Below are positions 1-56,712 of a stretch of 64,000 nucleotides of DNA, in pieces. The number at the start of each line of letters is the position of its first letter. Position 1 is the first letter of the stretch. The notes below the pieces were generated by a model. That model did no database searches and was not told the DNA's origin. It worked only from the letters and a program-made list of their open reading frames with translations. Made by a program: the position numbers and the translations under genes. Origin of the DNA: Cyanobium sp. (GTDB taxonomy: Bacteria; Cyanobacteriota; Cyanobacteriia; PCC-6307; Cyanobiaceae); assembly GCA_044360135.1 (NCBI GenBank), contig JBIKKX010000006.1, positions 10,028 to 74,027 on the forward strand, written 5' to 3'.

Positions 1-1
1 G

Positions 2-1111: not shown

Positions 1112-2424
1112 CCGCGATCCTGGACCTGGTCACTGCTGCCCGTTGGCGGGCCCTGGGTCAGCTGGCCGATCAGCAGACCTGGCCGGATGGGGCCCCTCTG
1201 GATCAGAGCAGCAAGCTCTGCCTCGACTACCTACGCGTTCCTCCCTACGAGGCCAATACGTCAATGCCCAGCCTGCAGAGCTTGGCTGCGGTCGATCTGC
1301 TGGCTGCCGCTTCCCTGTCGCTTTACAGGATCAGTCTTTGCGCGGTCTATCGGCACATTGCCTGTTGCGATCTTTCCTCGGCCAGGGATCAGGCCTTGGC
1401 GGCGGTGATTGTTCTGCATGATGGTCTGCGGCGCCTAGGACTTGTATCCACCGCTCTGGAGCAGGACACCCTCGCCCTGTCCCATCGCCTGGTCAACTGT
1501 TTGGCCAGCCAACATGATCTTCAGGATGCTCTGATCCGGCAGCGATTCTCCTCTCGCCTGGTTTTTGTGCTGGGCATGCATCGCAGCGGAACCTCTGCCC
1601 TTTCAGGCCTGCTCGCGCAGGCTGGACTTTCGGCACCAGCTGATCCGATGCCTCCAACCCCGGCCAATCCCAAGGGCTACTGGGAGTCCTTGGCAATCTT
1701 TAAAGCCAATGAGCAACTCTTGGCCCGTGTCGATCATCGCTGGAGTTCATCTTCGCCTTTGGCTTTAGACTGGACTTACAGCGATGTTGCACGGGAGTGG
1801 CGGTCCAGCCTGATCGATGCGCTCGCCATCTCGTTTGCTGATGCTGATCTTCCCGTCATCAAGGATCCACGTTTCTGTTTGCTGTTGGCTGGCCTCGATC
1901 CCTGGTTTCAGTCTGGCTTGATTGAATTTGTGTTTCTGATTCCCCTACGCCATCCATTTGAAGTCGCCAATTCTCTTCATCAAGCCGAACAGCTTGGCGC
2001 TGTGGAAGCTCTCAAGCTTTGGTCCGAATCGGTTTTTTTAGCAGAGCATTCAACGCAAGGCTACCCCAGGCTCTATCTAGGATTTGATGCCATCATCAAC
2101 ACTCCCCATCGGGTTCTCGACGCCTGCATGGAGTTCATGGCGGCCTCGCTACCTGGATGCCGTCTGCCTGATCGACGCGATCTGAGCGGGGCGCCCGACG
2201 TCGACGATGCTGTCGCCACCTTCATCACCCCAAGCCTGAGGCGTCAGCAGCCTGTCTTGGACCAGAGTCTGGTGCCAGCCGCCAGCCCGAACGCTTCGCT
2301 GTCGCGCCTGGCTGACTTCACCGAGGCCACCTATGCGGCGTTGCTTGCCGCCATCCACGATCCTGGGGAGGTCTCGCGCGTCCTGGCCGATTTGCGCCCC
2401 GAGCTGATTTACGCCCTGCTGTAG
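1108..2424 (+). CDS. sulfotransferase-family protein with an N-terminal extension of unknown function
   Basis: VFVLGMHRSGTSALSGLL matches the PAPS-binding 5'-PSB loop (hRSGTS) of bacterial sulfotransferases. It appears translationally coupled to the upstream gene. Confidence 0.7.
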   Translation: MTAILDLVTAARWRALGQLADQQTWPDGAPLDQSSKLCLDYLRVPPYEANTSMPSLQSLAAVDLLAAASLSLYRISLCAVYRHIACCDLSSARDQALAAVIVLHDGLRRLGLVSTALEQDTLALSHRLVNCLASQHDLQDALIRQRFSSRLVFVLGMHRSGTSALSGLLAQAGLSAPADPMPPTPANPKGYWESLAIFKANEQLLARVDHRWSSSSPLALDWTYSDVAREWRSSLIDALAISFADADLPVIKDPRFCLLLAGLDPWFQSGLIEFVFLIPLRHPFEVANSLHQAEQLGAVEALKLWSESVFLAEHSTQGYPRLYLGFDAIINTPHRVLDACMEFMAASLPGCRLPDRRDLSGAPDVDDAVATFITPSLRRQQPVLDQSLVPAASPNASLSRLADFTEATYAALLAAIHDPGEVSRVLADLRPELIYALL

Positions 2425-2844
2425 CCAGTCACGGCCGTGCTTCGCCTGCCGTGGGACCACTTAGCCAGAGATGTCCGGCGGCTCCAGGGAATACCACCAT
2501 GTGCTGTGCATCACATGCACACAACATGCACGGGAAGTCGTGGATGGCTGGCCTGCGGAATCATGGCCTGCGGGAAGGATTTCTGTTTTGGGGCGTCAAC
2601 ACTCAATAGATCCGACCAGTTCTGGCTTCCCACGCTTCCAAGGGCCCCTTTGCGCCAGGAGCGACTTGTCCAGCCCAGTCCACCACTGATCGGACGGCGC
2701 AGCAGCAGCCCGATTGAAGCATAAGCAGGGCCGCTCGTTTTCGGCCCAATGTTGACCATTGCTTATGAATTGGGCTTGGCGGGTGCATCCATTGTCACTT
2801 CCTGGGCAGGTGGCTAAGATCCCAGGACATTCAATTTTCGATTG

Positions 2845-3504
2845 ATGACTTCTCTCCTGAGCGGCCTCGGGCTAGCGGCGGTGGGCGCGACAGTGTCCGT
2901 TTTGGCTGCGATGCCTGCCCAGGCCATCACGTTCGACTTCACAGGCGCGGAAACATCGGGCGGAACCGCTTCTAAGTCCTACACGCAAAGCGGCATTACC
3001 CTCACCTTCACGCCATCAGCCGGTTCTGCGATGGCCAATGTGGCTCAGTCCGCAAATGGACTTTGTCTTTATGCCAATGCTGATACAGCAACTCCACGTT
3101 GTGGCGTGCCGGAGACACCCACATCTTCCGGTACCTACAACTTGATCAAAATGACCACCAACACAGCGATCAAGCTGACGGCTTTCAACATCAAGCAAAT
3201 CATGCTTGGTACCGGTGGCAGCGTGGGTAACATCTTCGTCAAAGATGCTTACACCGGCGGCAACACGCTCTCCACCATCAACACAAGCGCTATCGGAGCC
3301 GGTACCTTCAGTCCTGATTTCACCATCGCCGCTGGTAGCTCGATCTATTTCGATGGCTCAGGTTCCCTGGGTTCCGTTCGCTTTGAAAGCTTCACAGTTG
3401 ACCCCGTCCCCACCCCAGGTCCTCTGCCCCTGGCAGGTGGCGTGATCGCTTTTGGCTGGGGTAGAAAAATCAGAAATCGCATCAAGTTTTCTGCCGATAG
3501 CTGA
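2845..3504 (+). CDS. secreted protein with a PEP-CTERM-like C-terminal sorting signal
   Basis: N-terminal signal peptide MTSLLSGLGLAAVGATVSVLAAMPAQA. The C-terminus VDPVPTPGPLPLAGGVIAFGWGRKIRNRIK shows a P-x-P motif, a hydrophobic helix and a basic cluster, which is the PEP-CTERM architecture. An exosortase gene lies at 57961-58875. Confidence 0.55.
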   Translation: MTSLLSGLGLAAVGATVSVLAAMPAQAITFDFTGAETSGGTASKSYTQSGITLTFTPSAGSAMANVAQSANGLCLYANADTATPRCGVPETPTSSGTYNLIKMTTNTAIKLTAFNIKQIMLGTGGSVGNIFVKDAYTGGNTLSTINTSAIGAGTFSPDFTIAAGSSIYFDGSGSLGSVRFESFTVDPVPTPGPLPLAGGVIAFGWGRKIRNRIKFSADS

Positions 3505-3641
3505 CCCATTCAAGGCTGACCGTGGCACTCTCGCCAGGACCATCAGTTCTGGAGGGAGTGTCACTATTCAGTCCTCGCGATTTCAACGCTATGCTGTCAT
3601 TGAGTTGCTTTCAGCTCATGGCAGCTTTTTGTTTTCTAAAG

Positions 3642-4565
3642 ATGTTTAGGGTTCTCTTTCATCGCGATTATCAAGGCTTTACTGGCGGCCACCTCAAGCT
3701 TGCAGACTATGTTCGACACGTGGATGCATCCTCTTTCTGTCAAGCGCAGATCCATGTCACGCCAGCAAGTAGCCGCGATCATCTTTGGATCGATCATCCT
3801 CGCTTGATTTCGAGCTATGATCCTTTGAATGCAGATCTGCTTTTTATTGCGGGTCTCGATTGGTTGGCTTTGCAAGATTATAACGGCATTGAAGCTGCAA
3901 AGCCCGTCATCAATCTCGTGCAGGGATTGCGTCATGCTGATCCAGATCATCTCTTGTTCTCCTTCCTTGAGAAAAGGGCGGTCCGCATTTGTGTGAGCGA
4001 TGAGGTCGCGGCGGCGCTTTCAAGCACAGGCAAGTGTAATGGTCCAATCCATACAATCACGAACTGCATTGATCACGCTTTGCTTCCTGCCGACAAGCAC
4101 TATCTGGCTTCCAAGGTCGTGATTTTAGGTGTCAAACAGCCAGAACTCGCCCGGCAACTTGAGCAGTCGCTTGGCGAGCATGATTTGGCACCGCTCTGCA
4201 TCACAACCCCTTTGCCGCGCCAAACGCTGCTGGAGATCAGCCGCGATGCCCATGTGATCGTGACACTGCCGACAGCCTCGGAGGGTTTTTACTTGCCGGC
4301 CTTGGAAGCGATGGCGATGCGGCGAGCCGTGGTCTGCACGGATTGCATTGGCAATCGTGGCTTCTGCCGTGATGATGACACCTGTCTGATGCCGGCCAAT
4401 GATCTCAGCAGTCTGACCGCTGCGGTGTTGCGCCTCCTGCGGGACGAGCAGCTGGTCAGCCGGCTTCAGGATCGGGGCTATGCCCAGAGCCTCCAGCATC
4501 GGATCGAGCAGGAACGCCAACAGTTTCAAGCTCTTTTGGCTGATATCGTAACCAGTGTGACTTGA
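3642..4565 (+). CDS. glycosyltransferase, GT1/GT4-type (GT-B fold)
   Basis: The C-terminal motif EGFYLPALEAMAMRRAVVCTDCIGNRGF matches the E-x7-E / EAMA signature of GT4 enzymes. The ATG at 3642 (MFRVLFHRDY) is preferred over the longer track ORF starting at 3522. Confidence 0.75.
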   Translation: MFRVLFHRDYQGFTGGHLKLADYVRHVDASSFCQAQIHVTPASSRDHLWIDHPRLISSYDPLNADLLFIAGLDWLALQDYNGIEAAKPVINLVQGLRHADPDHLLFSFLEKRAVRICVSDEVAAALSSTGKCNGPIHTITNCIDHALLPADKHYLASKVVILGVKQPELARQLEQSLGEHDLAPLCITTPLPRQTLLEISRDAHVIVTLPTASEGFYLPALEAMAMRRAVVCTDCIGNRGFCRDDDTCLMPANDLSSLTAAVLRLLRDEQLVSRLQDRGYAQSLQHRIEQERQQFQALLADIVTSVT

Positions 4566-4569
4566 TGGC

Positions 4570-5418
4570 ATGACAACCATGCGCAATGCACTGATTACGG
4601 GGCTGCCGCGGTCTGGCACATTCCTGGTCTGCAGTCTTCTCAATACGCTGCCCAATAGCGTGGCCCTGGCAGAACCGATGGATGTCTCGCAATTCAGTGC
4701 TAGCAGCGAAGAGCATAATCTTCGCTTGATTGACGATTTCTTTGCCGACCAGAGACGGCGTATCCTGACGGAAGCCACCGCGGCTGGTCAGTGCGTGGCT
4801 GGGCGCACACCCACGAATCCCGTTGGTGATGATTTGGTCGATGGTGTGCGCTCCTATGTGCTCGATGGATCGGCCATGGTGGTCGATAATCTGGATGGCC
4901 CTGGCTTTGATCTCTACATCAAGCATCCAGTTATCTTTACGGCGCTTCTCCCCTGGCTGGCGCAGCATTTCGCTTGTCTTGCCATGATCCGTAATCCCCT
5001 GGCCGTGCTGATGTCGTGGTCGGTGGCGCCGATGCCTGTCCGGCAGGGGCGAGCGCCTGCCGCGGAGCGGATGGATCCCGCCCTCGCCGCCCAACTCGAT
5101 GCGGAACCTGATCTGCTGGCAAGACAGATTCTGCTGCTCGACTGCTTTTTCAGCCGCTACGCCGCATCGCCTGCGATCCAGATCATCCGCTATGAGGATC
5201 TGATCGCCTCATCGGGCCGTGCCCTTGCCGCATTCACGCCCTCGGCGGCCTCTCTGGACGTGCCCCTGCATACCCGCAACAGCCTGGAAATCAAGCGCAA
5301 CCCCAAGGCGCCATGGATCGCCGAACGGCTTCTGAACAGTGACATCGCCTGCTGGCAGTTCTATTCACGTGCAGAGGTTGCGGCGCTGCTCGACCACGCC
5401 CTTGCCGGGCCCGCTTGA
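4570..5418 (+). CDS. sulfotransferase-family protein
   Basis: ALITGLPRSGTFLVCSLL is a PAPS-binding-loop-like motif near the N-terminus. The size (282 aa) and the neighbouring glycan-modification genes fit this call. Confidence 0.6.
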   Translation: MTTMRNALITGLPRSGTFLVCSLLNTLPNSVALAEPMDVSQFSASSEEHNLRLIDDFFADQRRRILTEATAAGQCVAGRTPTNPVGDDLVDGVRSYVLDGSAMVVDNLDGPGFDLYIKHPVIFTALLPWLAQHFACLAMIRNPLAVLMSWSVAPMPVRQGRAPAAERMDPALAAQLDAEPDLLARQILLLDCFFSRYAASPAIQIIRYEDLIASSGRALAAFTPSAASLDVPLHTRNSLEIKRNPKAPWIAERLLNSDIACWQFYSRAEVAALLDHALAGPA

Positions 5419-5641: not shown

Positions 5642-7804
5642 TTGCACCCCGCCAGCACCTTTGAGGCTGCAGCCGGTTTCCCGCCGCTTCCGTTCCAGCT
5701 GGCCTGGATGGAGCAGGGCGAATCGGCGCCGATCCGCACCCTGGAGGCACCCACCGGCCTGGGCAAGACGCTCGCCACCCTGGTGGGCTGGCTGTGGGAT
5801 CGGCAGCAGCGGCCTGAAACCACGCCCCGGCGGCTGGTGTATCAGCTGCCCCTGCGCACCCTCACCGAGCAGATCGCGCTGGAGTGCCGGGCGGTGATGG
5901 TCCGGTTGGGGGTGACGATCCCGGTGCATGTGCTGCGCGGCGGCCAGATCGACAACGACTACATCGAGGACCTGGCGGCCGAGGCGGTGATCGTCGGCAC
6001 CCTGGATCAGGTGGTGAGCCGGCAGTTGATGCGCGGCTACTGCTGCACCCGCTGGAGCTGGCCGCGCCACTTCGCCGCTCTCAACACCGATGTGCGGGTG
6101 GTGGTGGATGAAACCCAGCTCCAGGGGGCGGCCGTGCGCACGGCCATCCGCCTGCAGCAGCTGCACCAGGAGCTGGGCGGGCCGGCGCCGCGGGAGTTGG
6201 TGCTCTGCTCCGCCACCCTTGATGCCGCGATCCTGCCGCCGGGCACCCCCCGCCATGGCCTCAGCGATGCCGACTACGCCCATCCCGTGGCGCTGCGCAA
6301 GGTGGGCCGCTCCAAGCCGCTCACCCTGGCGGGAGACCGCGATCCGGCGGCGCTGGTCAAGGACCATCACCAGGAGGGCAGCCTCACCCTGGTGGTGGTC
6401 AATCAGGTGCGTCGCGCCCAGGCGATCGTTGCCCAGCTGCAGGGCCTGCCAACCCTGCTGCTCCACTCCCGTTTCCGCCGGGCCGAACGGCAGGCGATCG
6501 AGGCTCAGCTGCGGGAGTTCCGCGGCGTGGTGGTCGCCACCCAGACCGTGGAGGCCGGGATCGATCTCGATGCCCGCCTGCTGATCACCGATCTCTGCCC
6601 CTGGGCGTCGTTCGTGCAGCGCTGCGGCCGGGTGGGCCGCAACAACACCTACGCCGATGCCGCCGTGATCGTGGTGGAACCGGCTCAGGAGTTGCCCTAC
6701 ACCAGCGCTGAACTCTCCGAAACCCGCCGCCGCCTTGACGGCCTGGACGATGCCTGCGTGCGCAATCTGATGGCGGTGGAGGCTCCGGTGCAGCGGGGTG
6801 AGGGGCAGCGGCTCACCGCTGAGACCTTCCACCAGCTGTTCGATACCCATCCGCTGGAGCAGGGCGACCTCGACATCAGCCCCTATCTGCGCGTGGGTGA
6901 GATGCGGGATGTGTCGCTGCTGTGGCGCCGGCAACCCGGGGCGGAAATGGCGGCGGCGGGCGATCCGGAGCTGTGCCAGGCGCCGCTGCGGGCCGTGCAA
7001 CGACGCTTTGACACGGTCTGGATCCCTCGCGGCGATGGCTGGGCGGAGATCCCAGCCGGGCAGCTGAGTGTGGGGTCCGTGGCGGCCGTTTCCTGCGAGG
7101 TCGGCGGCTACGACCCTGCGGTGGGCTGGCTGCCCGCCAGCACCATGGCCGTGCCTGAAATCCAGCCGCCTTCAGCGCTTGGCGCTGCAGAAGACCGCAG
7201 CAGCTTTGGCTCCTCCGTGGCCGTGACCCTGCCCCAGCACCTGGGCGACACCAGGGAGGAGGCCGCTGCCCTGTGCAGCGCCCTGGGCCTCAATACATCT
7301 CTGGCCGCTCAGCTGCAGCGGGCGGCCTGGCTGCACGACATCGGCAAGGCCCATCCTGTGTTTCAGGCCACGATGCGGGCCAACGGCTGCGGCGAGGGCC
7401 AATGGGCCAAGGCGCCCGGATGGGGCAGCCGCCACAGCCGGCCTGGTTTTCGCCATGAGCTGGCCTCTGCCCTGGCAGCCCTGGAGCTGGGGGAGGAACC
7501 GCTGGTGAGTTATCTGCTGATGAGCCACCACGGCAAGATCCGGCTCCAGCTGCAGCCCTTCCCCTGGGCGCGGGATGGACCGCTCCACGGCGTCGAAGCA
7601 GGAGAGACCCTCCCAGCCGTCGCTGGTGTGAGCGAAGCCGTGACCTTGCGGTTTCCGCCGTCCGGCCTGGGCAGGGGCTGGCGCCACCTCTGTGGGCGGT
7701 TGCTGCGGCAGCACGGCCCATTCGAGCTGGCCTGGCTGGAGGCGCTGATCCGCGAGGCCGATGGTCGCGCGTCCCGGCGCTGGCAGCTCCCCTCTCCCTG
7801 CTGA
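5642..7804 (+). CDS. cas3: CRISPR-associated helicase/nuclease Cas3, type I-G style with a C-terminal HD domain
   Basis: Helicase motif I LEAPTGLGKTLAT, motif II VVVDETQL, and motifs V/VI VVATQTVEAGIDLD and QRCGRVGR. The HD nuclease motifs lie at the C-terminal end: LPQHLGDT, WLHDIGKAHPVFQ, FRHELASALA and LLMSHHGKIR. The start is a TTG; the next in-frame ATG (5708) would cut off the conserved PLPFQLAW segment. Confidence 0.9.
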   Translation: MHPASTFEAAAGFPPLPFQLAWMEQGESAPIRTLEAPTGLGKTLATLVGWLWDRQQRPETTPRRLVYQLPLRTLTEQIALECRAVMVRLGVTIPVHVLRGGQIDNDYIEDLAAEAVIVGTLDQVVSRQLMRGYCCTRWSWPRHFAALNTDVRVVVDETQLQGAAVRTAIRLQQLHQELGGPAPRELVLCSATLDAAILPPGTPRHGLSDADYAHPVALRKVGRSKPLTLAGDRDPAALVKDHHQEGSLTLVVVNQVRRAQAIVAQLQGLPTLLLHSRFRRAERQAIEAQLREFRGVVVATQTVEAGIDLDARLLITDLCPWASFVQRCGRVGRNNTYADAAVIVVEPAQELPYTSAELSETRRRLDGLDDACVRNLMAVEAPVQRGEGQRLTAETFHQLFDTHPLEQGDLDISPYLRVGEMRDVSLLWRRQPGAEMAAAGDPELCQAPLRAVQRRFDTVWIPRGDGWAEIPAGQLSVGSVAAVSCEVGGYDPAVGWLPASTMAVPEIQPPSALGAAEDRSSFGSSVAVTLPQHLGDTREEAAALCSALGLNTSLAAQLQRAAWLHDIGKAHPVFQATMRANGCGEGQWAKAPGWGSRHSRPGFRHELASALAALELGEEPLVSYLLMSHHGKIRLQLQPFPWARDGPLHGVEAGETLPAVAGVSEAVTLRFPPSGLGRGWRHLCGRLLRQHGPFELAWLEALIREADGRASRRWQLPSPC

Positions 7805-7836
7805 AAGCTCGCTGAGAACCCTCCCCTCCCCCCGTC

Positions 7837-8838
7837 ATGCAACACAACCTCCGCCTGCGATCTGTTCTCCCCACCTTTGTTCCTGCGGGCTTCGTGGATG
7901 TGGGCCACAGCACCGTGCGCGATGCCCAGAGCGGTAAGACGCTGGTGATCGTGGATTCGGTGCAGTCGATCGCCAACCACCTGGAGGCCACGATCGTGGC
8001 GCAGCCGGGCCAGGCGATTGCCGGACTGGAGGCCATGCCCTACCTGCGGCTGACGATCACCGATCCCAAGGGCCGAACCCGAGTGACCAGCAGCCTGGAG
8101 CTGCCGCACCGGCTTGCTTCCGGCTGGTTTTGCCGCTCAGCCGATCTCAGGCCGTTTCAGCAGGAGCTGGCCAGGCAGATCCTCGATGACGGCATCGCCG
8201 CCGCAACCTTCCGCCACTGCCCCAACTCCTTGCTGCACGGCGTCTTCTACAGCCAGCTGGCGGGCCTCGATCCCAACGTGGCCAAGACCCCCCGCCTACT
8301 CACCGCTGAGGTGGTGGCGCGTGGTGCCCAGTCGGTGGCCGATGGCGGCGTGGCCAAGGATCCCCTCTTCCCCTCCGGCGATGGGTTCGATGTGGAGGGC
8401 CTGGTGGGCGAGAAGGCCACCGCGGCGGAGGTGGGCGCCGGCTTTATCCCGTTCCGCCACCAGGCTTTCATCGCTGAGGAGATCGAGCTGGCGGTGTACC
8501 TGGCGGAAGGGCGGATCGAGCGGTTGCCGCTGCCTGATCCAGCCCGGGAGGTGCTCTCGCTTCTGGCCCGCCTCAAACTGGCCCGGTTGCTGGCGGCACC
8601 GCTGGACTTACGGGCCCATTGCATCTTCCAGGCGGAGCAGGTGCCGGCGGAACTGAGCGATCCGGCGTCACTGCTGGCGGCGCTTCAGGAGAAGCTGGCC
8701 GCCTGCCGCAGCCTCGGACTGCTGGCCGAACCTGCGGTCACGGAGTTTGCCCTGACCCTCGGCGCCGCCAAGGAAAAAGGCAGGAAGGGCAAGGCTGGGG
8801 CAGCGGTGGCTGCGGCCGCTGCTGAGGAGGAGGGCTGA
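7837..8838 (+). CDS. csb1: type I-G Cas7 (Csb1 / GSU0053 family)
   Basis: FVPAGFVDVG and LVIVDSVQSIANHLE resemble the FQPTGFPDLG and LLVESxQSxANRLE signatures I recall for Csb1. Its position directly after an HD-C-terminal cas3 and before csb2 fits. Confidence 0.8.
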   Translation: MQHNLRLRSVLPTFVPAGFVDVGHSTVRDAQSGKTLVIVDSVQSIANHLEATIVAQPGQAIAGLEAMPYLRLTITDPKGRTRVTSSLELPHRLASGWFCRSADLRPFQQELARQILDDGIAAATFRHCPNSLLHGVFYSQLAGLDPNVAKTPRLLTAEVVARGAQSVADGGVAKDPLFPSGDGFDVEGLVGEKATAAEVGAGFIPFRHQAFIAEEIELAVYLAEGRIERLPLPDPAREVLSLLARLKLARLLAAPLDLRAHCIFQAEQVPAELSDPASLLAALQEKLAACRSLGLLAEPAVTEFALTLGAAKEKGRKGKAGAAVAAAAAEEEG

Positions 8839-10256
8839 TGGCCACCACGATCCGCATCACCCTGCTGTCGGGCCGCTATGGCGCCACCCCCTGGGGCCGC
8901 AGCGAACATGAAGGCCAGGTGGAGTACCCGCCCTCACCCTGGCGCCTGCTGCGTGCCGTGCTCCATGGGGCCTTTGTCCTAAGCGGCACCCCCGGCCAGC
9001 TACCAGAGGGCACCGAGCCGTTGCTTGCTCTCCTGGCCCAGGAGCCACCGAGCTATCACCTGCCCTATGGGGAGTTCGGCCAGATCCGGGGCTTCCGGCC
9101 CGTCTACGGCAATGAACTGGTGCCTCCCCTCGAGACGTTCGGCGGCGGCTACAGCCAGGCCAAGGGGAAGCGGCGCTCCTTCATCGATTCCTTCCTGGAG
9201 CTGGGCCGGGGCGCTGCGCTGCATGTGAGCTGGCCGGTGGATCTTGCCGCCGAGCAGGAGCGGTTGCTGGGTGCCTGCCTGGCGGGGCTGAGCTACCTGG
9301 GCCGGGCGGAATACCCGGCGATCTGGCAGGTGGTGCCGTCGATGCCGGCGGCCAACTGCAGCCCCGATCCAACCGGAACCCTCTCGGTGCTCCACTGCGG
9401 CGGTGACGATCTGCTGGAGGGATTGCTGATGAATGCCCAGCAGGGGCGGCTGGAAGGCCGCCAGAACCTGCCGGGGCAGCGCTGGTTGACATACCGCTAC
9501 ACCCCCGAGCGACCGGCGGTGGTTGGCCATGGCTCCAGGGCAGCGGCGGTGAACCGGGCGCTCTATGCCTTCCTCTCGGACCACGCCATGCCGGCGACCG
9601 CCGGGATCGCCTGGACCGATCGGCTGCACCGGGCCCTGTTGCGCACGGCGCCGCGTTCCACGCTGTTTGCCGGGCTGGCCGGTGGCCAGCCGCTCGGGGA
9701 GGACCAGCGGGCCTGGTACTGCTGGCATCAGAGCGATGGGGCGATCAGCGCCCTGGAGGTGCTGAGCCCGCAGCCCTTCACCGAAGCGGAAATCGAGGCG
9801 TTGCAGAAGCTGCGCCGGCTCTATGGCCGGGGCGGGGTGGAGGTGCCGCTGCGGCTGATGCGGCTCGACCATGCCCCATTCGGTCGCCACCGGCAGTGGC
9901 GCACCACCACACCGATGCTGCTCTACACCACGCCACGGGAAGGGAAGCTGCAGCGCAGCCCGGCGGGCCAGGCGATTCAGTCGTTGCTGTGGGGCCTGGG
10001 GGAACAGGGCAAGATCGATCCCGCCCTGTACCGGGCCGAGGCTGACGACCTCTGCGTGGATCATCCCAGCCACGGGCGAATTGCGGCGCGGCTGCTGGAG
10101 GTGGTGGATGGGTCAGGCCTCAACGGCCGGGGTGACCGCAAGGCCGCTTCCGGGCTCGGCTTTCATCTGGAACTGATGGCCGAGCAGGGGATGCCCGCGA
10201 TCGGCATCGGCTGGGGTCGCCATTTCGGCGCCGGAAGGCTGGAGGCGGTGGCATGA
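8838..10256 (+). CDS. csb2: type I-G Cas5-Cas6 fusion (Csb2 / GSU0054 family)
   Basis: The N-terminus ITLLSGRYGATPWGRSEHEGQVEYPPSPWRLLRAVLHG closely matches the Csb2 hallmark ([28 protein letters not shown]). The start overlaps the csb1 stop (TGATG). Confidence 0.85.
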   Translation: MATTIRITLLSGRYGATPWGRSEHEGQVEYPPSPWRLLRAVLHGAFVLSGTPGQLPEGTEPLLALLAQEPPSYHLPYGEFGQIRGFRPVYGNELVPPLETFGGGYSQAKGKRRSFIDSFLELGRGAALHVSWPVDLAAEQERLLGACLAGLSYLGRAEYPAIWQVVPSMPAANCSPDPTGTLSVLHCGGDDLLEGLLMNAQQGRLEGRQNLPGQRWLTYRYTPERPAVVGHGSRAAAVNRALYAFLSDHAMPATAGIAWTDRLHRALLRTAPRSTLFAGLAGGQPLGEDQRAWYCWHQSDGAISALEVLSPQPFTEAEIEALQKLRRLYGRGGVEVPLRLMRLDHAPFGRHRQWRTTTPMLLYTTPREGKLQRSPAGQAIQSLLWGLGEQGKIDPALYRAEADDLCVDHPSHGRIAARLLEVVDGSGLNGRGDRKAASGLGFHLELMAEQGMPAIGIGWGRHFGAGRLEAVA

Positions 10257-10435
10257 GCGCGCACCGCTGCCGATCGCTACAAACCCCCCTCACGCCGTGG
10301 AGCTGCGCGCTTCATTGCGGCGCAGGGGTTCTGGGCTGTTTGCAGCTCGTTGCCGAAGCAGCTGTCGGCCCCCAAACTGGTGCTGCGCGCCAATGGCCCT
10401 CAAGCCCTTGCAGCACCTTGCCTCTTGAGGGCCGG
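10257..10435 (+). promoter_or_regulatory. putative CRISPR leader
   Basis: Placed upstream of the best-conserved repeats, while the degenerate repeats sit at the far end. The repeat 3' end GTTGAAAC gives a + orientation. The leader is unusually G+C-rich and contains an 8-bp-stem hairpin CCCTCAAG-N19-CTTGAGGG at 10397-10431. Confidence 0.5.
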
Positions 10436-11518
10436 GTTCCGGATGGCTTTGCTATCCGGGGAAGTTGAAACAAGGACTTCATCGGCCGCCATTGCGGCAA
10501 TGGAGTCGGTGGGTTCCGGATGGCTTTGCTATCCGGGGAAGTTGAAACCACGCCATACGGCACGCCATGAGTTAGCCGCAACCCGTTCCGGATGGCTTTG
10601 CTATCCGGGGAAGTTGAAACTGGGCCGATCTCACCGCCATTGCCCAGCACAACGCGTTCCGGATGGCTTTGCTATCCGGGGAAGTTGAAACCTGCCAGCC
10701 TGCCCGCTCCCGCCGGTCATTGAGACAATTGTTCCGGATGGCTTTGCTATCCGGGGAAGTTGAAACGAGGTTGGATCCACCACCAAGACCATCAGCAACG
10801 CGGTTCCGGATGGCTTTGCTATCCGGGGAAGTTGAAACCAGGCATAGAAAAATCCCCGGCCAGTCACTGCAGCCGTTCCGGATGGCTTTGCTATCCGGGG
10901 AAGTTGAAACACCGACAAGCCGGTGGATGACGCCCTGCTGAACCTCGCCGGTTCCGGATGGCTTTGTTATCCGGGGAAGTTGAAACACCCAGCCCATTGT
11001 GATTCTGGCCGATCCCCCGGCTCGAGGTTCCGGATGGCTTTGCTATCCGGGGAAATTGAAACGAGACCATCAACGACCTCGATGGGTGGCTGGTCAACAC
11101 CTGTTCCGGATGGCTTTGCTATCCGGGGAAGTTGAAACTGCTGGTAGACCTCTCCGGCCAGGGCGCCGTGGATGTGGTTCCGGATGGCTTTGCTATCCGG
11201 GGAAGTTGAAACAACGCCTCAGTGACCGCCTCAATAACCCCGAAGTTCTAAGTTCCGGATGGCTTTGCTATCCGGGGAAGTTGAAACCACAACGGCACCG
11301 CGATCGCCTTCTGCTGCTCCGTGGCCCAGTTCCGGATGGCTTTGCTATCCGGGGAAGTTGAAACAAGGGCATGACGGTGTATAAGGGAATCGATCACAAG
11401 GTGGTTCCGGATAGCTTTGCTATTCGGGGAAGTTTAATCAATCTTGGATCCGAGGTGATTCCCCTGCGGTGTCTGTCGGCAGGTTCCAGATGGCTTTGCT
11501 ATTCAGGAAGTGGTCACC
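10436..11518 (+). CRISPR. CRISPR array: 13 conserved plus 2 degenerate terminal 36-nt repeats, 14 spacers
   Basis: Repeat GTTCCGGATGGCTTTGCTATCCGGGGAAGTTGAAAC. Repeat starts: 10436, 10513, 10585, 10656, 10731, 10803, 10875, 10951 (C17T), 11027 (G29A), 11103, 11177, 11252, 11329, 11404 (degenerate) and 11483 (strongly degenerate). The repeat folds into a 9-bp stem (CCGGATGGC/GCTATCCGG, one G-T wobble) with a TTT loop, followed by an 11-12-nt tail ending in the conserved GTTGAAAC motif. Spacers are unique and 35-41 nt long (43 nt for the last one). Confidence 0.97.
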
Positions 11519-11708
11519 AGGATTCACCCGCAGCTGCCCACCCCTCAACCCCACGCCGTTCTGGATAGCATTGCAGGCTGGAGAAAGCTGGATTACCATT
11601 GCCCAAGAGAAGGCTTTGCAATCCCTGTGGCGAGTTTGCGCCATCCTTCAAAGACCCTCTATTCGCACTGGCCTTGTATTGGCTCGTCTGTGCCCTTTAG
11701 AACTTGCA

Positions 11709-13721
11709 ATGGAAACCAATCTCACCAGCAGCCCACTTTCCAGCTACCTCTCTGCCCTGGGGTTGCTCAAGATTGCTTCCACCCAGCTTCCCCACAGCGC
11801 TGCAAGGGGATTCTGGCGCCAAGGCCGGTTCCAGCTGGATCTCTCCCTCTCCCGGTCAGACCTGAGCGAGTTTCTGGCCAGCCATTACCAGCCATCGCCT
11901 TGCCTGACGCCATGGAACAAACCCAAAAGCGGTGGGCCCGGCTTTCTCGAAGGCCAGGCGCCCGCCGCCATCGAGGCGTTGAGTGATTCGCGCTTTGACG
12001 AACTGCGACGGGTGGCCGCCCTGGCGGCGCAGGTGATGCCCCAGTTCGTCGAAGGCGGCAAGGTGAAAGGCGATGCCAAGCGGCTGGCCTTTGAAGCCCT
12101 GAGCCGAGACGTCCAGAGCGATGCCTTCGCCGCCTGGCTGCAGATCTGCGCGGTTGCAGGCGTTGATGCCAAGGGGAAGCCCTATGTCCGCTATCCGGCC
12201 CTGCTCGGCGGCACCGCCGGCTTTCTGGCAGCCGACTTCGGCGATCAGTTCGTGGCCTCCCTCGCCGTTGCCAATACCCAACACTTCGAAGCCGCGATCT
12301 TTGGATCCAGCGCACGGCATGTGCTGGTCAAAGCGGGCAATAGCCTGATCTATGACCCCGCCGGCCGCGGCGATGGGCAGCAGGGTTATCGCATCGCCAT
12401 CAGCGATGTGCAGACCACCACCGCCAATCCGGCCGAACTGATCCTGTTGGCCGAGGGCATGGCTTTCTTCCAGGGTTACGTCACCACGGTTCAGCAAGAG
12501 GGCAAGGAAGAGGAAGGCGCCCGCCAGGCCAGCTTTACCCTCGCCGTGGTCCACAACTCCTCCGCTCATGCCTCCAACAGCTGGCTGGAGAACGACGGGC
12601 AGCCTGCCGAAGAGCTGTGGTGTCCGCTTTGGGAGGAACCCGTGACTTTCCAGGAGCTACGCGACGAACTGGCCCGCGTTGCCCTGCTGCCTCTGCCGCG
12701 TCAGCTCCGCACTGGCACCGACTTCGCGCTGTTCGCCTCCCAGCTGGGCCGCCGCCATGGCCTCTCGGCCTTTGCCCGATACTGCTTCCCTCCCCGCGTG
12801 GGGCAGGGCACCAAGATCCCGTCGCTGATTGAAGTCTTCCCCCTTCACGACGGCCAGGAAGATCGCAGCGATGCCCTGGCAGGTGTCGCCGGATTCGCGT
12901 CCACCCTGCGCTGGCGGGCCGCCGATCGCTCCATCCCCACCAGCTACCGCAACAGTGCCGAACGGGTGGTGGCCGAACTTGAGGCCCTCTCAGGCGGTGG
13001 CGGTTCGTTCGCCACCCTTCTGCGGCACCTGGTGGCCTGGCGGCGGCAGGAAGACCTCATGCCCGATGCCGATCGGCTGCAGCGCTTTCGCCTGGGAAGA
13101 CGGGAGCTGCCACCCCAATGGTTCAGCCTCCTGGGACGGGAACTCGATGGCCCGGAATGGCGACTCGCCCTCGCCCTTGGAACCGGCCAGGGTCTACCCA
13201 CCCATCTGCTCAGGGCGACGCGAACCCCAGGCAGCAAGCCCAACGACAAGACGACCAGGGAGCAGCACCGGAACCAGCGCCTCACCCCGCTGGCAACCGG
13301 ACGCCCCTATGCCGGCCTGGCCGATGTGCTGCTGCTGCTGGAGGGACGGGTGGATGCCGAACTGGTGGACGATCTCACCTTGGCTGTCGCCTGGATCGAA
13401 CGCCGCGGCCTGCCCAAACTGCCGCCACCGGACACCCACCTCCCCTGGCTCCCGCCCGACTACCTCGCCGGGCTGCTCCTGAACCAATGGCACTTCGAGG
13501 CCCACAGCCCCGTGGAAGGCGACCGTGCCCGCTGGCGGGAGCTGTTGCTGGCCGGCCGTCCCGAGGAGGCCATGGAGGTGGCACTGCACCGCCTGCGGGT
13601 GGCTGAGGTGGTCAGTTGGGCGTGGCCGGCGATGGCAGCCAGTGATCCACACCGGCTGCTGCGGGCGGTGGAGGTGCCGGTGCATCCGCGCACCCTGGGC
13701 AGGGCGAAGGCTGGGGGGTGA
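11709..13721 (+). CDS. csx17: type I-G large subunit Cas8g/Cas8u2 (Csx17 family)
   Basis: From the ATG at 11709, METNLTSSPLSSYLSALGLLKIAS...ARGFWRQGRFQLDL...LTPWNKPKSGGPGF matches the Csx17 N-terminal pattern (PLxxYLKALGxLRL...xGxW...F.L...PWNGGSGF). The track ORF starting at 11469 runs through the degenerate repeats, so that extension is rejected. Confidence 0.8.
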   Translation: METNLTSSPLSSYLSALGLLKIASTQLPHSAARGFWRQGRFQLDLSLSRSDLSEFLASHYQPSPCLTPWNKPKSGGPGFLEGQAPAAIEALSDSRFDELRRVAALAAQVMPQFVEGGKVKGDAKRLAFEALSRDVQSDAFAAWLQICAVAGVDAKGKPYVRYPALLGGTAGFLAADFGDQFVASLAVANTQHFEAAIFGSSARHVLVKAGNSLIYDPAGRGDGQQGYRIAISDVQTTTANPAELILLAEGMAFFQGYVTTVQQEGKEEEGARQASFTLAVVHNSSAHASNSWLENDGQPAEELWCPLWEEPVTFQELRDELARVALLPLPRQLRTGTDFALFASQLGRRHGLSAFARYCFPPRVGQGTKIPSLIEVFPLHDGQEDRSDALAGVAGFASTLRWRAADRSIPTSYRNSAERVVAELEALSGGGGSFATLLRHLVAWRRQEDLMPDADRLQRFRLGRRELPPQWFSLLGRELDGPEWRLALALGTGQGLPTHLLRATRTPGSKPNDKTTREQHRNQRLTPLATGRPYAGLADVLLLLEGRVDAELVDDLTLAVAWIERRGLPKLPPPDTHLPWLPPDYLAGLLLNQWHFEAHSPVEGDRARWRELLLAGRPEEAMEVALHRLRVAEVVSWAWPAMAASDPHRLLRAVEVPVHPRTLGRAKAGG

Positions 13722-13849: not shown

Positions 13850-14482
13850 ATGGCTGTTCCCAGGCGGAAAACCGTGCTGAGCGAACGGATCCTTGAAGCT
13901 GCCGGCAGGCGTCCGGAGGGATCGCTGCTGGCGGCCAAGCAGTTCTTGGCGCTGGGCAAACGGGATGCCGTGGATCAGGCCCTGCGGCGCCTGACAGCCC
14001 GCGGCGAGCTCGTCAAGATCACCCGCGGCCGTTACGCCCTGCCCGTGCGCAGTCGCTTCGGCACCCGACCGCCGTCGCCGGAGCTGGTGATCGCCCAGCT
14101 CAACCAGGAGGGCGCTCAGCAGCTGGTCAGCAGCGGCGCCACCGCGGCCAACGCCCTGGGCCTCACCACCCAGATGCCCGTGCAGCAGACCTTCCTGGCC
14201 CGGATCAGGAGCCAGAAGCGCTACGTCTTCGGAAAGCAGCAGGTCATGATCCGCCCGGCAGCCGCCTGGAACTTCCTTCTGCCCGATCGCCCCGCCGGCC
14301 AGGCGATCCGCGCACTCGCCTGGCTCGGCCCGGATCAGGCCGCAGCGGCCCTGCCAGAGCTGCGCCGCGTGCTGCCACCGCAGGAGTGGGAGGCCCTGCT
14401 CTCCGTTCGTGCCGAGCTGCCCCTGTGGCTGGCGAAGGTGCTGAGCGGACAGGCGCTGGAGCCGCAGGTGGCTCGTGGCTGA
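13850..14482 (+). CDS. DUF6088 / AbiEi-antitoxin-like winged-helix protein, with no cognate AbiEii nucleotidyltransferase nearby
   Basis: FLALGKRDAVDQALRRLTARGELVKITRGRYALP fits the AbiEi N-terminal wHTH pattern. SSGATAANALGLTTQMPVQQTFLA fits the G-x-AxNxLGLTTQVP pattern of the DUF6088 family. Confidence 0.65.
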   Translation: MAVPRRKTVLSERILEAAGRRPEGSLLAAKQFLALGKRDAVDQALRRLTARGELVKITRGRYALPVRSRFGTRPPSPELVIAQLNQEGAQQLVSSGATAANALGLTTQMPVQQTFLARIRSQKRYVFGKQQVMIRPAAAWNFLLPDRPAGQAIRALAWLGPDQAAAALPELRRVLPPQEWEALLSVRAELPLWLAKVLSGQALEPQVARG

Positions 14483-14603
14483 GGCTTGGTTCGTTCTTCC
14501 AGCGGGGGATCGACCGGAAGTCCTGGCAGTTGCTGCTGGCGAATCCGGCTGACTTGACTCTCGGCCCAGTAACTGCTAAAGATTCAACAAGGCCCTTCTT
14601 AAT

Positions 14604-15398
14604 ATGCGTCCAATGACAAAAGATGGTGACAGGGAGGAGTTAATAATTTCAAAGTGGAAGCTTGTTCGCTCGGCAATAGAACACGAGAATACGCTGAAAA
14701 GCCAGCGAATAACATGGTTTTTGGCGACTCAGGTTTTTCTCTTTGCGGGTTTCACTCAGGTCTAAATTGAAGCGGTAAAGAACTCATCGTATTTCGGCAG
14801 TATCAAAATTGCTGTTATTCTGTCTCTTGCATGCGCGCTTGGGTTCGCCACCTCGCTGCTTGCATGGGCAAATGTGAAGGCTGCGCAGAAGGCTATTTCT
14901 CGTCTTCAAAACTGGTGGCTGATCCACTACTCTCCCCTGAAAGAAAATGACATCGAAGAGGAATGGACAAAACTGATTAAATACGGCGCAGGGGAAGGCA
15001 GATTTCCTCCAATCAATGGGATTTTCACGAAAAATTTCTATCGCCATTTAGATGAGAAGCAACTTCCCGCCCTCATTGCATGGGCATGGTTGCTGCTACT
15101 TGGGAGTACCGTCGGTTTCTTCTTGAATAAGCGGCTAGGGTGGAATGCCTTGTGCTACTTCGTGCTGCCGCTCTTGTTCGGCGCTTGTGCCGTGGTCATG
15201 GTCTATCTACTTGCGCGGCACTTGTTCAGGCAGGAAAGCAAGAAATCTCTCGGAGACCTTAAGGAGTATCACCCTAAAACTCTGGCTTCAAAAAAAAGGG
15301 AGCCCGCTCAAGAAGCCCAAGCACCACTCCTGTCTCAACAGCAGGGCTCTGCGCCAAAGCAAAACCCACCAGCCGACCACCAGCAGCCAGGGCTATGA
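14604..15398 (+). pseudogene. multi-TM membrane protein reading frame interrupted by one in-frame TAA (14763-14765)
   Basis: An ATG at 14604 opens a 53-codon ORF too short for the track (MRPMTKDGDREELIISKWKLVRSAIEHENTLKSQRITWFLATQVFLFAGFTQV*). The same frame continues as IEAVKNSSYFGSIKIAVILSLACALGFATSLLAWANV into track ORF 14874-15398. The TM helix between 14766 and 14873 has no start codon of its own. G+C is visibly low. Confidence 0.45.
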
Positions 15399-15961
15399 AT
15401 AGCTGAGGGCCACGTCCCTTGATGTGGTGAAAAAAACCAGGCCCATATACCCTGATTCGAGGTTGAACAGGTATGGATGACTGGTGGTCATCAGGGAGGC
15501 GCAGATACACCTCTGTAAGGAACGATGAATCGTGACAAATGAGTTGTCAAGTCTCTCTTCCGCGTCTTGAGGTTTGGAGGTCGGGAGGAGCTGTTCAGCC
15601 CCGGGGTTGTAGCGGCAAACCCCAGTGTTTGCCATATGACCGGCCCACGCGGGCACAGGGGAAATTATCAAGAGAAGGCGGGCCGTCCGACCCACGATCA
15701 GGCAGCCCATGCCGGCCAAGACTTCCAGCACTGAACCAAGCCCAGCAGGCGGGGCAGGCGGCTGCGGGGGGCGAGGCCAGGCCCAGGACTGGAGGCGATA
15801 GACCAGCACGGCGGCCAGCGGCACGTCCGCCAGCACAGCATCCGTGGCGGGGTTGGGCATCGCCAGGGCCGGAGTGATGGTTCCCCTGAAATTGTCCCCA
15901 CGGCCGGACAGCGGGCCTCCTGATACGAAAACATGCGAAATGGGGCGCTAGTTGCTCAGGC

Positions 15962-16438
15962 ATGCTATGGCTACTCTGGTATTCATTGCTTTCTTCTATG
16001 GCGATCAATCCAGAAGCACTGCGTCAGGCTAGTCAGAAGGTGTCCCTTGCTGGCGGTTTCTGCCAGCTCAGCGGCGCATTGTTGGTTGTAACAGGTGGCG
16101 TGCTGACCTTGGCCACGGTGCTCGGTGGTGGAGGTTTATACGGCTTACTTTTTGGAGGCTCAGCATCTTTTTTGCTAGCGCTTGCAGGGGCCCCTGTAGC
16201 TGCATTAGGGAGCATTGCCAACAGCCAGAAAGCATCCAAGGAAATGCTGCTGCTGTACATCAGGGATAGCGTTGCTGAGCAGCCAAGGCGGCGTCCACTA
16301 GATCGATGGAGTCGTTGGGAGCCTGAAAGTGACCTTGATCAAACCGATTACATCGAAGAACCGGAACCGGAAAATCTCCAAATCAACAGAGAGGGAGCAA
16401 ACACCCCGCCACCTCCGCCTCCACCCCCGCGTAGGTGA
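15962..16438 (+). CDS. hypothetical small membrane protein: 2 glycine-rich TM helices, an acidic linker and a poly-proline tail
   Basis: Low-G+C ORF. The TM segments are GALLVVTGGVLTLATVLGGGGLYGLLFGG and SFLLALAGAPVAALGSI. The C-terminus is TPPPPPPPPRR. An alternative start is MAINPE at 15998. Confidence 0.4.
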   Translation: MLWLLWYSLLSSMAINPEALRQASQKVSLAGGFCQLSGALLVVTGGVLTLATVLGGGGLYGLLFGGSASFLLALAGAPVAALGSIANSQKASKEMLLLYIRDSVAEQPRRRPLDRWSRWEPESDLDQTDYIEEPEPENLQINREGANTPPPPPPPPRR

Positions 16439-16498
16439 AGGCATCAGGGAGCCAAGGGGTCAGCAGAAGGGCATCAGGAGGGTTCTCAGGGGCGGACA

Positions 16499-16834
16499 TC
16501 ACCCCAGCAGCAGACTCCTTGCAGACTCTGCCTTCTCGCGGGCAGCATCCTGATCGAGGTGACGCTCCAGGGTCGCCATGCTGCTGGCGTCCGCTGATCT
16601 CGGCCACCTCGCGCAAGCTCAGCCCGGCCTGGTGTGTGGTGTTTAGGGCGCTGCGGTGGAAACTGTGGCTGCTCACTCCGGCGATGCCCACCTTCTCGGC
16701 CAATTTGCTGATAGCGGTCTGGGCGCCGCGGATGCTCAAAGGCTGGCCTGCTCCAGCACGGACTCCGCATCGGCAGGGATCACGCGACCTGCCATCGCGC
16801 CATCGAGCTTCAGGATGATCGGGCGACTCAGCAT
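16499..16834 (-). pseudogene. decayed tyrosine recombinase (phage-type integrase), C-terminal fragment with frame disruptions
   Basis: The minus-strand translation GIAGVSSHSFHRSALNTTHQAGLSLREVAEISGRQQ fits the integrase box II region (HxxR...G). After a +1 shift it continues MATLERHLDQDAAREKAESARSLLLG*. An upstream piece, SRPIILKLDGAMAGRVIPADAESVLEQASL*, lies in a third frame. No N-terminal domain is present. Confidence 0.6.
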
Positions 16835-17043
16835 TGTGCTGAGCCGCGAAACCCTGGATCAGGCCTTATGGGGCATCGCGCCTCAGGATCTGAACCTCGG
16901 GTGTTCCAAGTGGCTGGGGGTTGACCGTGCCAGGTCACGTGCCCCCCAGGGCCTGTCTCGTTCCGCTCTGTGCCGCCGAGGCCGCGGCCGGTTCAAACAT
17001 GCACCCAGTTCCGCGCCCACATCGGCCTCCAGGCCCCAACACG

Positions 17044-17073
17044 AAAAAACCGCCTGGCCGAGAAGCCAGACGG
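17044..17073 (-). terminator. rho-independent terminator downstream of tRNA-Ala
   Basis: On the minus strand the hairpin CCGTCTGGC-TTCTCG-GCCAGGCGG (9-bp stem, one mismatch) is followed directly by TTTTTT. Confidence 0.55.
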
Positions 17074-17090
17074 TGACAGGGTTCTGAGGA

Positions 17091-17163
17091 TGGAGCCAAG
17101 CGGACTCGAACCGCTGACCCCCTGCATGCCATGCAGGTGCTCTACCAGCTGAGCTATGGCCCC
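17091..17163 (-). tRNA. tRNA-Ala (anticodon GGC)
   Basis: The reverse complement is GGGGCCATAGCTCAGCTGGTAGAGCACCTGCATGGCATGCAGGGGGTCAGCGGTTCGAGTCCGCTTGGCTCCA. It folds as a cloverleaf: 7-bp acceptor stem with the G3:U70 alanine identity pair, anticodon loop AT-GGC-AT and T-loop GGTTCGAGTCC. CCA is not encoded. Confidence 0.95.
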
Positions 17164-27904: not shown

Positions 27905-27954
27905 GGTTGGGGAGGTTGGATGGATGTCTTCTTGCTGGTGCCTGAGACTCGGGC

Positions 27955-28959: not shown

Positions 28960-29018
28960 GGAGGCTGGATGATTGCGTCGTTCGTTGGAATCCCTGCTCA
29001 GGGAGGCGGCACAGCTGC

Positions 29019-52481: not shown

Positions 52482-52528
52482 GGCGGTGATGCACCAACGA
52501 AGGATAATACGAAAGAGGGCGAATGTCG

Positions 52529-56643: not shown

Positions 56644-56686
56644 AGCCGAAATCTCGGCTGTGAAGCCTAGTCATGAGCAGTAATGT

Positions 56687-56707: not shown

Positions 56708-56712
56708 ACTCT

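Follow-up and report, generated by a model that had tools for sequence, protein, structure and literature searches.

The 64,000-nucleotide (nt) stretch of Cyanobium sp. DNA analyzed here (GenBank assembly GCA_044360135.1, contig JBIKKX010000006.1, positions 10,028–74,027; hereafter the window) carries, at 5642–13721, a type I-G CRISPR-Cas locus whose array lies within the effector operon, between csb2 and csx17, the gene for the large subunit Cas8g. The reading that we judge probable as a whole is that of an adaptation-less, interference-competent I-G system in which a cassette occupies the csb2-csx17 gap and ties cas8g to transcription of the array. At that same joint probability, the lineage is confined to Cyanobium/Synechococcus (Prochlorococcaceae) picocyanobacteria, and the window lost orf102-cas1-cas2 by deletion between short direct repeats (TGAG..GCGCAC). 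For comparison, 50-odd related loci (L numbers below) were fetched and their genes and repeats mapped.

An Intact Type I-G Effector Module

Judged by its profile matches, the locus is a genuine type I-G CRISPR-Cas system with an intact effector set, all on the + strand. The four cas genes were identified with NCBIfam profiles, each match lying above the profile's own curated cut-off; gene and Pfam annotation covers positions 1135–52230 of the 119,927-bp JGI metagenome contig Ga0453905_0000014, which contains the window. The first gene, cas3g (5642..7804; 720 amino acids [aa], TTG start), encodes a helicase with a C-terminal HD nuclease. It matches TIGR02621 at 545.6 bits (cut-off 400), and its Pfam domains (DEAD 34–194, Helicase_C 242–334 and Cas3_HD 530–633 of 720 residues) place the HD domain after the helicase. 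The backbone subunit gene csb1 (cas7g; 7837..8838), which has a Pfam Cas_GSU0053 match, scores 56.1 bits against TIGR02570 (cut-off 38), and its product matches Cas7 of the Thioalkalivibrio sulfidiphilus I-G Cascade (PDB 8ANE) at E = 1.8e-15. The start of csb2 (8838..10256) shares one base, 8838, with the csb1 stop. This gene, the signature of subtype I-G, encodes a Cas5-Cas6 fusion, the presumed endonuclease of the precursor CRISPR RNA (pre-crRNA), of which residues 3–466 of 472 align to TIGR02165 at 93 bits (cut-off 45). The Csb2 C terminus carries a conserved GWGRHFGAGRL motif containing a conserved histidine, and we infer that the His of GWGRHFGAG corresponds to H503, the catalytic residue of the T. 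sulfidiphilus enzyme.

The large subunit gene csx17 (cas8g1; 11709..13721; 670 aa) scores 173.7 bits against TIGR04113 (cut-off 150), a match that covers only profile positions 8–503 of 718. A profile of the Csx17 clade matches Csx17 of the T. sulfidiphilus I-G Cascade (PDB 8B2X) at E = 3.3e-36. The protein ends in a helical, putatively Cas11-like domain that is conserved within the clade by alignment; no extra small open reading frame (ORF) with a family match, and hence no separate cas11, appears in the operon in the Pfam and NCBIfam annotation. An N-terminal motif, M-x-T-x-L-x-x-x-P-L-S-S-Y-L, is common to 17 aligned homologs and begins at ATG 11709, which we therefore take as the true start; GTG 11469 is ruled out as a start by the same conserved N terminus.

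These matches bear out the first-pass annotation, which had described a Cas3 with a C-terminal HD nuclease, Csb1, Csb2 and Csx17 as intact on the + strand and had assigned the locus to subtype I-G: the ORFs at 7837–8838, 8838–10256 and 11709–13721 fall in the Csb1, Csb2 and Csx17 families. Because the subtype rests on effector genes, the assignment stands without adaptation genes.

Csx17 residues ∼488–525 (13170–13283) form a 38-aa low-complexity linker insertion between the N-terminal and the C-terminal Cas11-like domains; some clade members (670 aa) have it, others (630–633 aa) do not. Many metagenome loci retain only the C-terminal 110–150 aa of Csx17, that is, the Cas11-like domain (L043:8724–9266, L044:2145–2765, L046:8888–9316, L050:815–1357, L052:154–648, L053:2296–2796 and L055:∼2100–2480). 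Upstream, these remnants are joined in at least six different ways, fusions to Cas3 fragments among them, and most are open to the native stop. The domain may be retained as a stand-alone; ascertainment bias is likely here, because the search motif lies within it.

Leader and Array

The leader (10257..10435, + strand, 179 nt) holds three conserved GCGCGC-containing motifs, at 10254–10263 (TGAGCGCGCA, which includes the csb2 stop), 10298–10311 and 10383–10390, and a 10-bp inverted repeat (10395–10404/10424–10433) just 5′ of repeat 1. Both the motifs and the inverted repeat are conserved in 19 aligned loci, cas1-less ones included. The leader is 179–184 nt long in the six loci measured and is kept in all three locus architectures described below, following either csb2 or cas2. 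A promoter presumably lies within it, and its motifs could be regulator sites, integrase docking sites or promoter elements. The window leader has a weak −10-like hexamer, CAAACT, at 10373–10378. In several loci a −10-like hexamer likewise precedes the third motif by 4–5 nt.

The array (10436..11518) was mapped on the + strand between csb2 and csx17 with 15 repeats, as first annotated: 13 intact 36-nt repeats and two degenerate ones, separated by 14 spacers of 35–43 nt. The intact repeats (GTTCCGGATGGCTTTGCTATCCGGGGAAGTTGAAAC, n = 13, 10436–11364) are perfect or one base off, and the degenerate repeats at 11404–11439 and 11483–11518 retain 32/36 and 25/36 identity. In each repeat an 8-bp hairpin is followed by GGAA as linker and then by the 8-nt handle GTTGAAAC; over 12 repeat variants from related loci, 99% of cells in the hairpin are paired, and two pairs are compensatory. 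This geometry fits the Csb2 cleavage site that has been mapped biochemically 4 nt 3′ of the stem, leaving an 8-nt handle (PMC9638904), and by analogy we infer that Csb2 processes the repeats to CRISPR RNAs (crRNAs) with 8-nt handles. The array reads in the + direction because the TTGAAAC handle stands at the 3′ end of the repeats, degeneracy is on the csx17 side and the conserved leader of ∼180 nt lies by csb2; the reverse orientation was rejected on the same grounds.

Spacers 2, 3 and 5 (10549–10584, 10621–10655 and 10767–10802) are mutually similar at 15–19/36 positions and account for the 72-nt and 218-nt periods reported by Tandem Repeats Finder. They may target homologous sites of diverged phages.

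csx17 Is the Last Gene throughout the Lineage

The Csx17 homologs comprise ∼89 clusters at 50–100% identity, after which the next-best matches fall to 28–29%. Every homolog with a named organism comes from Cyanobium, Synechococcus or a Prochlorococcaceae/Cyanobacteriota genome or metagenome-assembled genome (MAG). Their loci take three forms. Type A, cas3-csb1-csb2-leader-array-csx17, comprises the window and ∼13 other distinct loci. Type B, cas3-csb1-csb2-orf102-cas1-cas2-leader-array-csx17, is found in L007 (Cyanobium sp. FGCU-6) and L060–L063, with partial deletion forms in L024 and L013. Type C has a divergent cas1-cas2-leader-array upstream of cas3-csb1-csb2-csx17 (L006, L025, L026 and L028), and the short contig L032 shows a type C-like adjacency of csb2 and csx17. 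The csb2-csx17 gap is exactly where types A and B carry the cassette, and the leader comes directly after a stop codon (TGA followed by GCGCGCA).

csx17 is last in every lineage locus with readable gene order, and the array precedes it in ∼20 distinct loci, so the window order that had been singled out as departing from other I-G loci is common to its relatives. The canonical order, cas3-csx17-csb1-csb2-cas4/1-cas2, is found in L012, the nearest outgroup, so that the terminal position of csx17 is a trait of the picocyanobacterial lineage.

The Array-csx17 Junction Supports Co-transcription

Among the ∼20 distinct loci in which csx17 follows the array, the end of the terminal repeat lies 21–29 nt from the csx17 ATG in 13 and 45 nt from it in 2 more. 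Relative to the consensus, these terminal repeats retain the stem arms (∼86–90%), the GGAA linker (91%) and the first 3 nt of the handle (96%), with the last 5 nt at 34%; in relatives, 6–8 of the 8 stem pairs are kept. The spacer before the terminal repeat is different in every locus, and with a junction of only 21–29 nt no conserved −35 or UP element is possible. In the type C arrangement csx17 starts 14–17 nt after the csb2 stop in 4 of 5 loci (∼137 nt in L006), so that the basic operon has no room for a promoter of its own. These comparative data strongly support co-transcription of csx17 with the pre-crRNA, and transcription through the array appears to be the simplest explanation for csx17 expression. 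To our knowledge, cyanobacteria lack the Rho termination factor, and an untranslated array would therefore not be expected to cause polarity.

In the window the junction is looser. The decayed distal end of the array forms the csx17 5′ region (11519..11708, + strand, 190 nt), so the spacing given in the first-pass annotation is correct; the interval is not empty, as it holds two further repeat relics at 11558–11585 and 11609–11624 (alignment scores of 24, equal to the top score among 500 shuffles). Its last ∼19 nt before the ATG (11690–11708) resemble the short conserved tail of the relatives (CCCTTTAGAACTTGCA versus CCCACTAAACTTGACTCC). No terminator-like site was found on the + strand between 5000 and 14600, in line with the earlier impression that none precedes csx17, and the distal array region shows no unusual folding stability (z = −0.11). 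Repeat 14 has a full hairpin (8/8 pairs) and the GGAA linker; repeat 15 has 6/8 pairs and an indel. Since, of the two degenerate repeats, only repeat 14 is fully hairpinned, a processed csx17 mRNA in the window would have a 5′ untranslated region (UTR) of ∼200–280 nt. The earlier proposal of read-through from the array thus gains from the 15 of ∼20 loci with 21–45-nt junctions and from the 14–17-nt spacing after csb2 elsewhere, and is less tightly constrained in the window itself. Its companion, that cleavage at the terminal repeat defines the csx17 5′ end, is plausible in the tight-junction relatives; in the window, repeat 15 is damaged.

Several observations weigh against this reading. In the sub-lineage of the window (window, L010 and L013–L016) the tails between array and csx17 are 94–330 nt long, are not conserved between loci and could hold a secondary csx17 promoter. 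We place less confidence in read-through for the window than for its clade, because the 190-nt stretch might contain such a promoter. Some tight tails have −10-like hexamers ∼8–13 nt before the ATG (TAAACT and TACAAT, identified by eye) that could give leaderless transcripts. A consensus sigma-70 scan, which is uninformative for a cyanobacterium of 70% G+C, found no site in the leader or elsewhere.

The alternative suggested by these points, which we regard as unlikely, is that csx17 has its own promoter in the last spacer, the terminal repeat or the tail, and that the position of the array reflects neutral cassette insertion with no regulatory effect. The 190-nt tail of the window and the 94–330-nt tails of its sub-lineage are roomy enough for one, the hexamers in some tight tails are TAnnnT-like and stand at about −13 to −8, and many cyanobacterial promoters lack a −35 element. 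However, the 13 loci with 21–29 nt between repeat and ATG each have a different spacer upstream, the long tails have no common conserved block, csx17 is operonic in 4 of the 5 loci whose cassette is elsewhere, and the promoter scan, for what it can tell at this G+C content, offers no site for csx17 either. An independent promoter is unlikely precisely because so little sequence at the tight junction is invariant.

Two of the long tails, L014:231–471 and L016:9671–10000, have a common inserted segment (GGTGTCTGGTCGGGCCATCATCCGCAGGGAGG), which may be a small mobile or RNA element.

The degenerate units also raise the question of a regulatory mini-array of the CreR/CreTA kind, whose pseudo-spacers would direct Cascade to a cas promoter or a toxin gene for repression. 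CreR/CreTA mini-arrays have one or two repeats and a pseudo-spacer partly matching a nearby promoter (PMC9458426, PMC10120712), and CreR/CreA elements typically lie upstream of cas8 in types I-B, I-E and I-F (PMC10120712; bioRxiv 10.1101/2023.03.10.532045). The window resembles them in having degenerate repeats between cas genes, directly upstream of cas8. It differs in carrying a full-size immune array with no self-match found: among the window spacers and pseudo-spacers, none has a seed match of 11 nt (position 6 free) elsewhere in the window, and the handful of seed matches seen in other loci are not flanked by a TTN protospacer adjacent motif (PAM) and fall outside promoter regions. With no PAM-flanked seed matches, this candidate was rejected, and we give it almost no credence; the degenerate units are nothing more than the end, now decayed, of a 13-unit array.

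Loss of the Adaptation Genes

Searching the 64-kb window in all frames by tblastn with the clade's Cas1 and Cas2 and with a Cas4/Cas1 fusion gave a best E of 0.17. The precomputed Pfam annotation, which includes ∼9 kb upstream of the window, likewise contains no cas1, cas2 or cas4; window positions 42–64 kb were covered by tblastn alone. The absence of these genes reported by the first-pass annotation for the surroundings of the locus thus extends across the window, and a cas4/1-cas2 module just outside it, which had been considered, was not found in those ∼9 kb of the same contig. The accompanying suggestion that csx17 occupies the adaptation-gene slot fails, since relatives with cas1-cas2 have them between csb2 and the leader and still have csx17 after the array.

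The window's nearest Csx17 relatives (L060–L063, 89–90% identity) are all type B and thus carry orf102-cas1-cas2. In type B relatives the same short motif occurs at the csb2 end (GCATGAGGGAGCGCACC) and at the cas2 end (ATCTGAGCGCGCATCC), and the csb2-leader junction of the window, GCATGAGCGCGCACC, is the product expected from deletion between the two copies: the TGAG..GCGCA microhomology found at both ends of orf102-cas1-cas2 is also present at the window junction. Such a deletion would have joined the csb2 stop codon directly to the leader. Other, independent deletions are seen in L024, where a 5′-truncated cas2 is joined to the csb2 stop, and in L013, which lacks cas3-csb2, and they indicate that adaptation-gene loss is recurrent.

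The type B Cas1 is a stand-alone protein of 330 aa that lacks a Cas4 domain; of the cas4g/cas1g model, it matches the Cas1 half alone. Between csb2 and cas1, type B loci have a conserved ORF of ∼102 aa (L060:4447–4755, L062/L063:4826–5134 and L007:7421–7705) whose start overlaps the csb2 stop (ATGA). Its product is hydrophobic, probably with two transmembrane segments, and has no Pfam match; the ORF is missing from type C loci. It may be an adaptation-linked accessory gene in a lineage whose Cas1 lost Cas4.

Selection, Spacer Turnover and Targets

Full-length copies of all four effector genes are present in the window and in more than 15 relatives without cas1. The genes are under purifying selection, with ratios of nonsynonymous to synonymous substitution rates (dN/dS) of 0.07–0.39, comparisons between cas1-less loci included. 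By gene, the ranges are 0.17–0.35 for cas3g (itself full length in more than 15 relatives), 0.07–0.24 for csb1, 0.14–0.30 for csb2 and 0.15–0.39 for csx17; by pair, they are 0.07–0.17 for the window and L016 and 0.13–0.22 for L018 and L019, the frameshifted L019 csb2 being left out.

Spacer content differs sharply between close relatives. L018 and L019, both cas1-less and 94–95% identical in nucleotide sequence, have 0 of 11–12 spacers in common, and L031 and L040 (97.6% identity) have one in common of 24 and 29 (the L040 contig is short and its cas1 status unread). These nearly disjoint sets suggest acquisition in trans or exchange of arrays by recombination, and argue against simple decay. 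Identities compared module by module between related loci are mosaic, which would fit recombination.

Decay is the natural rival here: the locus would be a non-functional remnant, cas1-cas2 loss being the first step in the loss of CRISPR-Cas, as suggested by Cai et al. and Park et al. The adaptation genes are indeed absent and the distal repeats decayed, and relatives display partial deletions, among them the 5′-truncated cas2 of L024, the missing cas3-csb2 of L013 and several cas3′-′csx17 scars. The two metagenome contigs spanning the array have it in identical form, and protospacers were looked for without success. Set against this are the intact effector genes and their low dN/dS, the 13 repeats that are perfect or single-base variants, the fully conserved leader motifs and the spacer turnover, and we consider a decaying remnant very unlikely.

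Some of the same observations also count against present activity in this population. The identity of the array in the two contigs gives no sign of ongoing acquisition. Compared with 50,697 GenBank phage genomes, the window array produced chance-level matches only, the best being spacer 5 to Gordonia phage portal genes (25 nt exact, E = 0.03; probably chance). None of ∼80 spacers from the window and nine relatives matched GenBank phages at E ≤ 0.01, and three window spacers, searched as exact 26–29-mers in IMG/VR, gave no match.

Host and Genomic Setting

The window PheS is 85–87% identical to those of Cyanobium gracile, several Cyanobium sp. and Synechococcus sp. CCY 9618, and G+C outside the islands of the window is ∼70%. 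On these grounds the host is a freshwater picocyanobacterium of the Cyanobium clade, outside the marine Synechococcus/Prochlorococcus clade. The marine framing of the first-pass annotation does not survive this placement, nor the fact that every named Csx17 relative is a Cyanobium, a Synechococcus or a Prochlorococcaceae MAG.

The CRISPR locus lies within a variable island whose flanks (window 1–5100 and 13850–17163) are of lower G+C, 51–61%, and encode glycosyltransferases and ORFs of unknown function. They include a DUF6088/AbiEi-like gene at 13850–14482 and a tRNA-Ala at 17091–17163 (− strand), the sole Rfam match in the window above the gathering threshold. An ArdC-N/MPTase anti-restriction-like gene lies upstream, just before the window start (L058:7245–8354). 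The tRNA-Ala was rejected as an integration site, as no direct repeat of ≥14 nt of the tRNA region occurs elsewhere in the island, and no att-like repeat was found. CRISPR loci of relatives stand in wholly different surroundings, with integrases, a resolvase with ArdA, or toxin-antitoxin clusters.

Elsewhere in the window, a 405-bp unit is repeated in tandem at 174–981 (2.0 copies, 97% identical) within a coiled-coil SMC-like ORF (11–1111). Further blocks of low G+C (52–60% versus the 70% background) lie at 27000–29000, 33000–35000 and 52000–61000. Those at 27–29 and 33–35 kb carry genes for glycosyltransferases, STELLO-family proteins or acyltransferases; for the block at 52–61 kb there is no gene annotation on record. 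All are probably further cell-surface or variable islands.

Discussion

The window locus shares with the canonical I-G systems of Geobacter sulfurreducens and T. sulfidiphilus (PMC9638904) a Cas3 with C-terminal HD domain, Csb1, the Csb2 fusion and Csx17, the lack of cas11, and 36-nt repeats in which a hairpin is followed by a linker of 4 nt and a handle of 8 nt that ends in TTGAAAC. In contrast to their order, cas3-csx17-csb1-csb2-cas4/1-cas2-array, the window reads cas3-csb1-csb2-array-csx17. It lacks the Cas4-Cas1 fusion and Cas2, the Cas1 of its relatives is a stand-alone protein of 330 aa with no Cas4, and its Csx17 is only 28–29% identical to the nearest homologs outside the clade.

I-G systems in freshwater picocyanobacteria were described by Park et al. 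(2024; Microbiome 12:150, PMC11316352), who tie them to eutrophic ecotypes and state that 40.7% of CRISPR-positive genomes lack cas1 yet "maintained spacers within the operon." The window resembles their loci in host (SC5.2 Cyanobium/Synechococcus), in subtype and in being cas1-less with operon spacers. To that extent neither the presence of I-G nor the missing adaptation module is new, and the rarity of CRISPR-Cas in this group, to which the first-pass annotation had appealed, finds no support as an argument. The order with csx17 after the array, the 21–29-nt junction, the three architectures, the deletion mechanism and co-transcription go beyond the text of that paper. Our literature search found no description of the csx17-after-array order, the 21–29-nt junction or the three architectures, nor of the flanking-repeat deletion or the implied co-transcription and processing of csx17. 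What is new is thus an architectural variant of I-G with a plausible mechanism for expression of the large subunit.

Considered together, the comparisons are consistent with a model in which, in most members of the lineage, an (orf102-cas1-cas2)-leader-array cassette was inserted into a very short csb2-csx17 gap. Transcription would run from the leader, onward from the cas3-csb1-csb2 operon, or both, through the array into csx17. Csb2 would bind each repeat hairpin and cut 4 nt downstream, between GGAA and GTTGAAAC, freeing crRNAs that carry 8 nt of handle at the 5′ end. At the last processable repeat, cleavage would split the csx17 mRNA from the array, and because this mRNA would be released from the array transcript, Cas8g synthesis would be tied to array transcription. 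Cascade (Cas7, Csb2, Cas8g and crRNA) would then recruit Cas3 for degradation of matching DNA. The processed csx17 leader is predicted at ∼200–280 nt in the window, where the last approximately four repeat units have decayed, and at ∼29–37 nt in most relatives.

More tentatively, and with somewhat more doubt than conviction, we propose that the array is an obligatory part of the cas8g unit, that Csb2 makes the 5′ end of its mRNA, that the subunit licensing Cas3 is thereby coupled to the pre-crRNA, and that spacers are renewed by acquisition in trans or by array exchange. The terminal repeat, which keeps its hairpin and cleavage site and has lost the last 5 nt of the handle, would set the cas8g 5′ end ∼29–37 nt before the ATG. 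Array exchange would proceed by recombination between the conserved leader and csx17, the alternative being Cas1-Cas2 acting in trans.

In 2012, Qi et al. reportedly used synthetic Cas6/Csy4 cleavage sites as 5′-UTR insulators in engineered operons. The arrangement seen here is similar in placing a Cas6-type hairpin directly 5′ of a coding sequence, where cleavage would yield a defined, short mRNA 5′ end whatever the sequence context upstream; unlike the engineered sites, it is natural and stands on the system's own large-subunit gene, and its cleavage is a prediction.

If this model is correct, the mRNA of an essential Cascade subunit would come from the pre-crRNA transcript and be trimmed by the system's own Cas6-type nuclease, a natural counterpart of the engineered Cas6 insulator sites. 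It would also bear on the balance between Cas proteins and crRNA, so far approached mainly through CreR-type autorepression. Among the CRISPR-Cas types of bloom-associated freshwater picocyanobacteria, I-G is one of the main ones, and cultured carriers exist in Cyanobium sp. FGCU-6 (type B) and Synechococcus sp. CS-205 (type A), so that these predictions are directly testable. With natural variants that have or lack cas1-cas2, carry the array within the operon or elsewhere, and show junctions from tight to decayed, the lineage offers natural experiments on how an interference module persists, and how its array changes, after the adaptation genes are lost.

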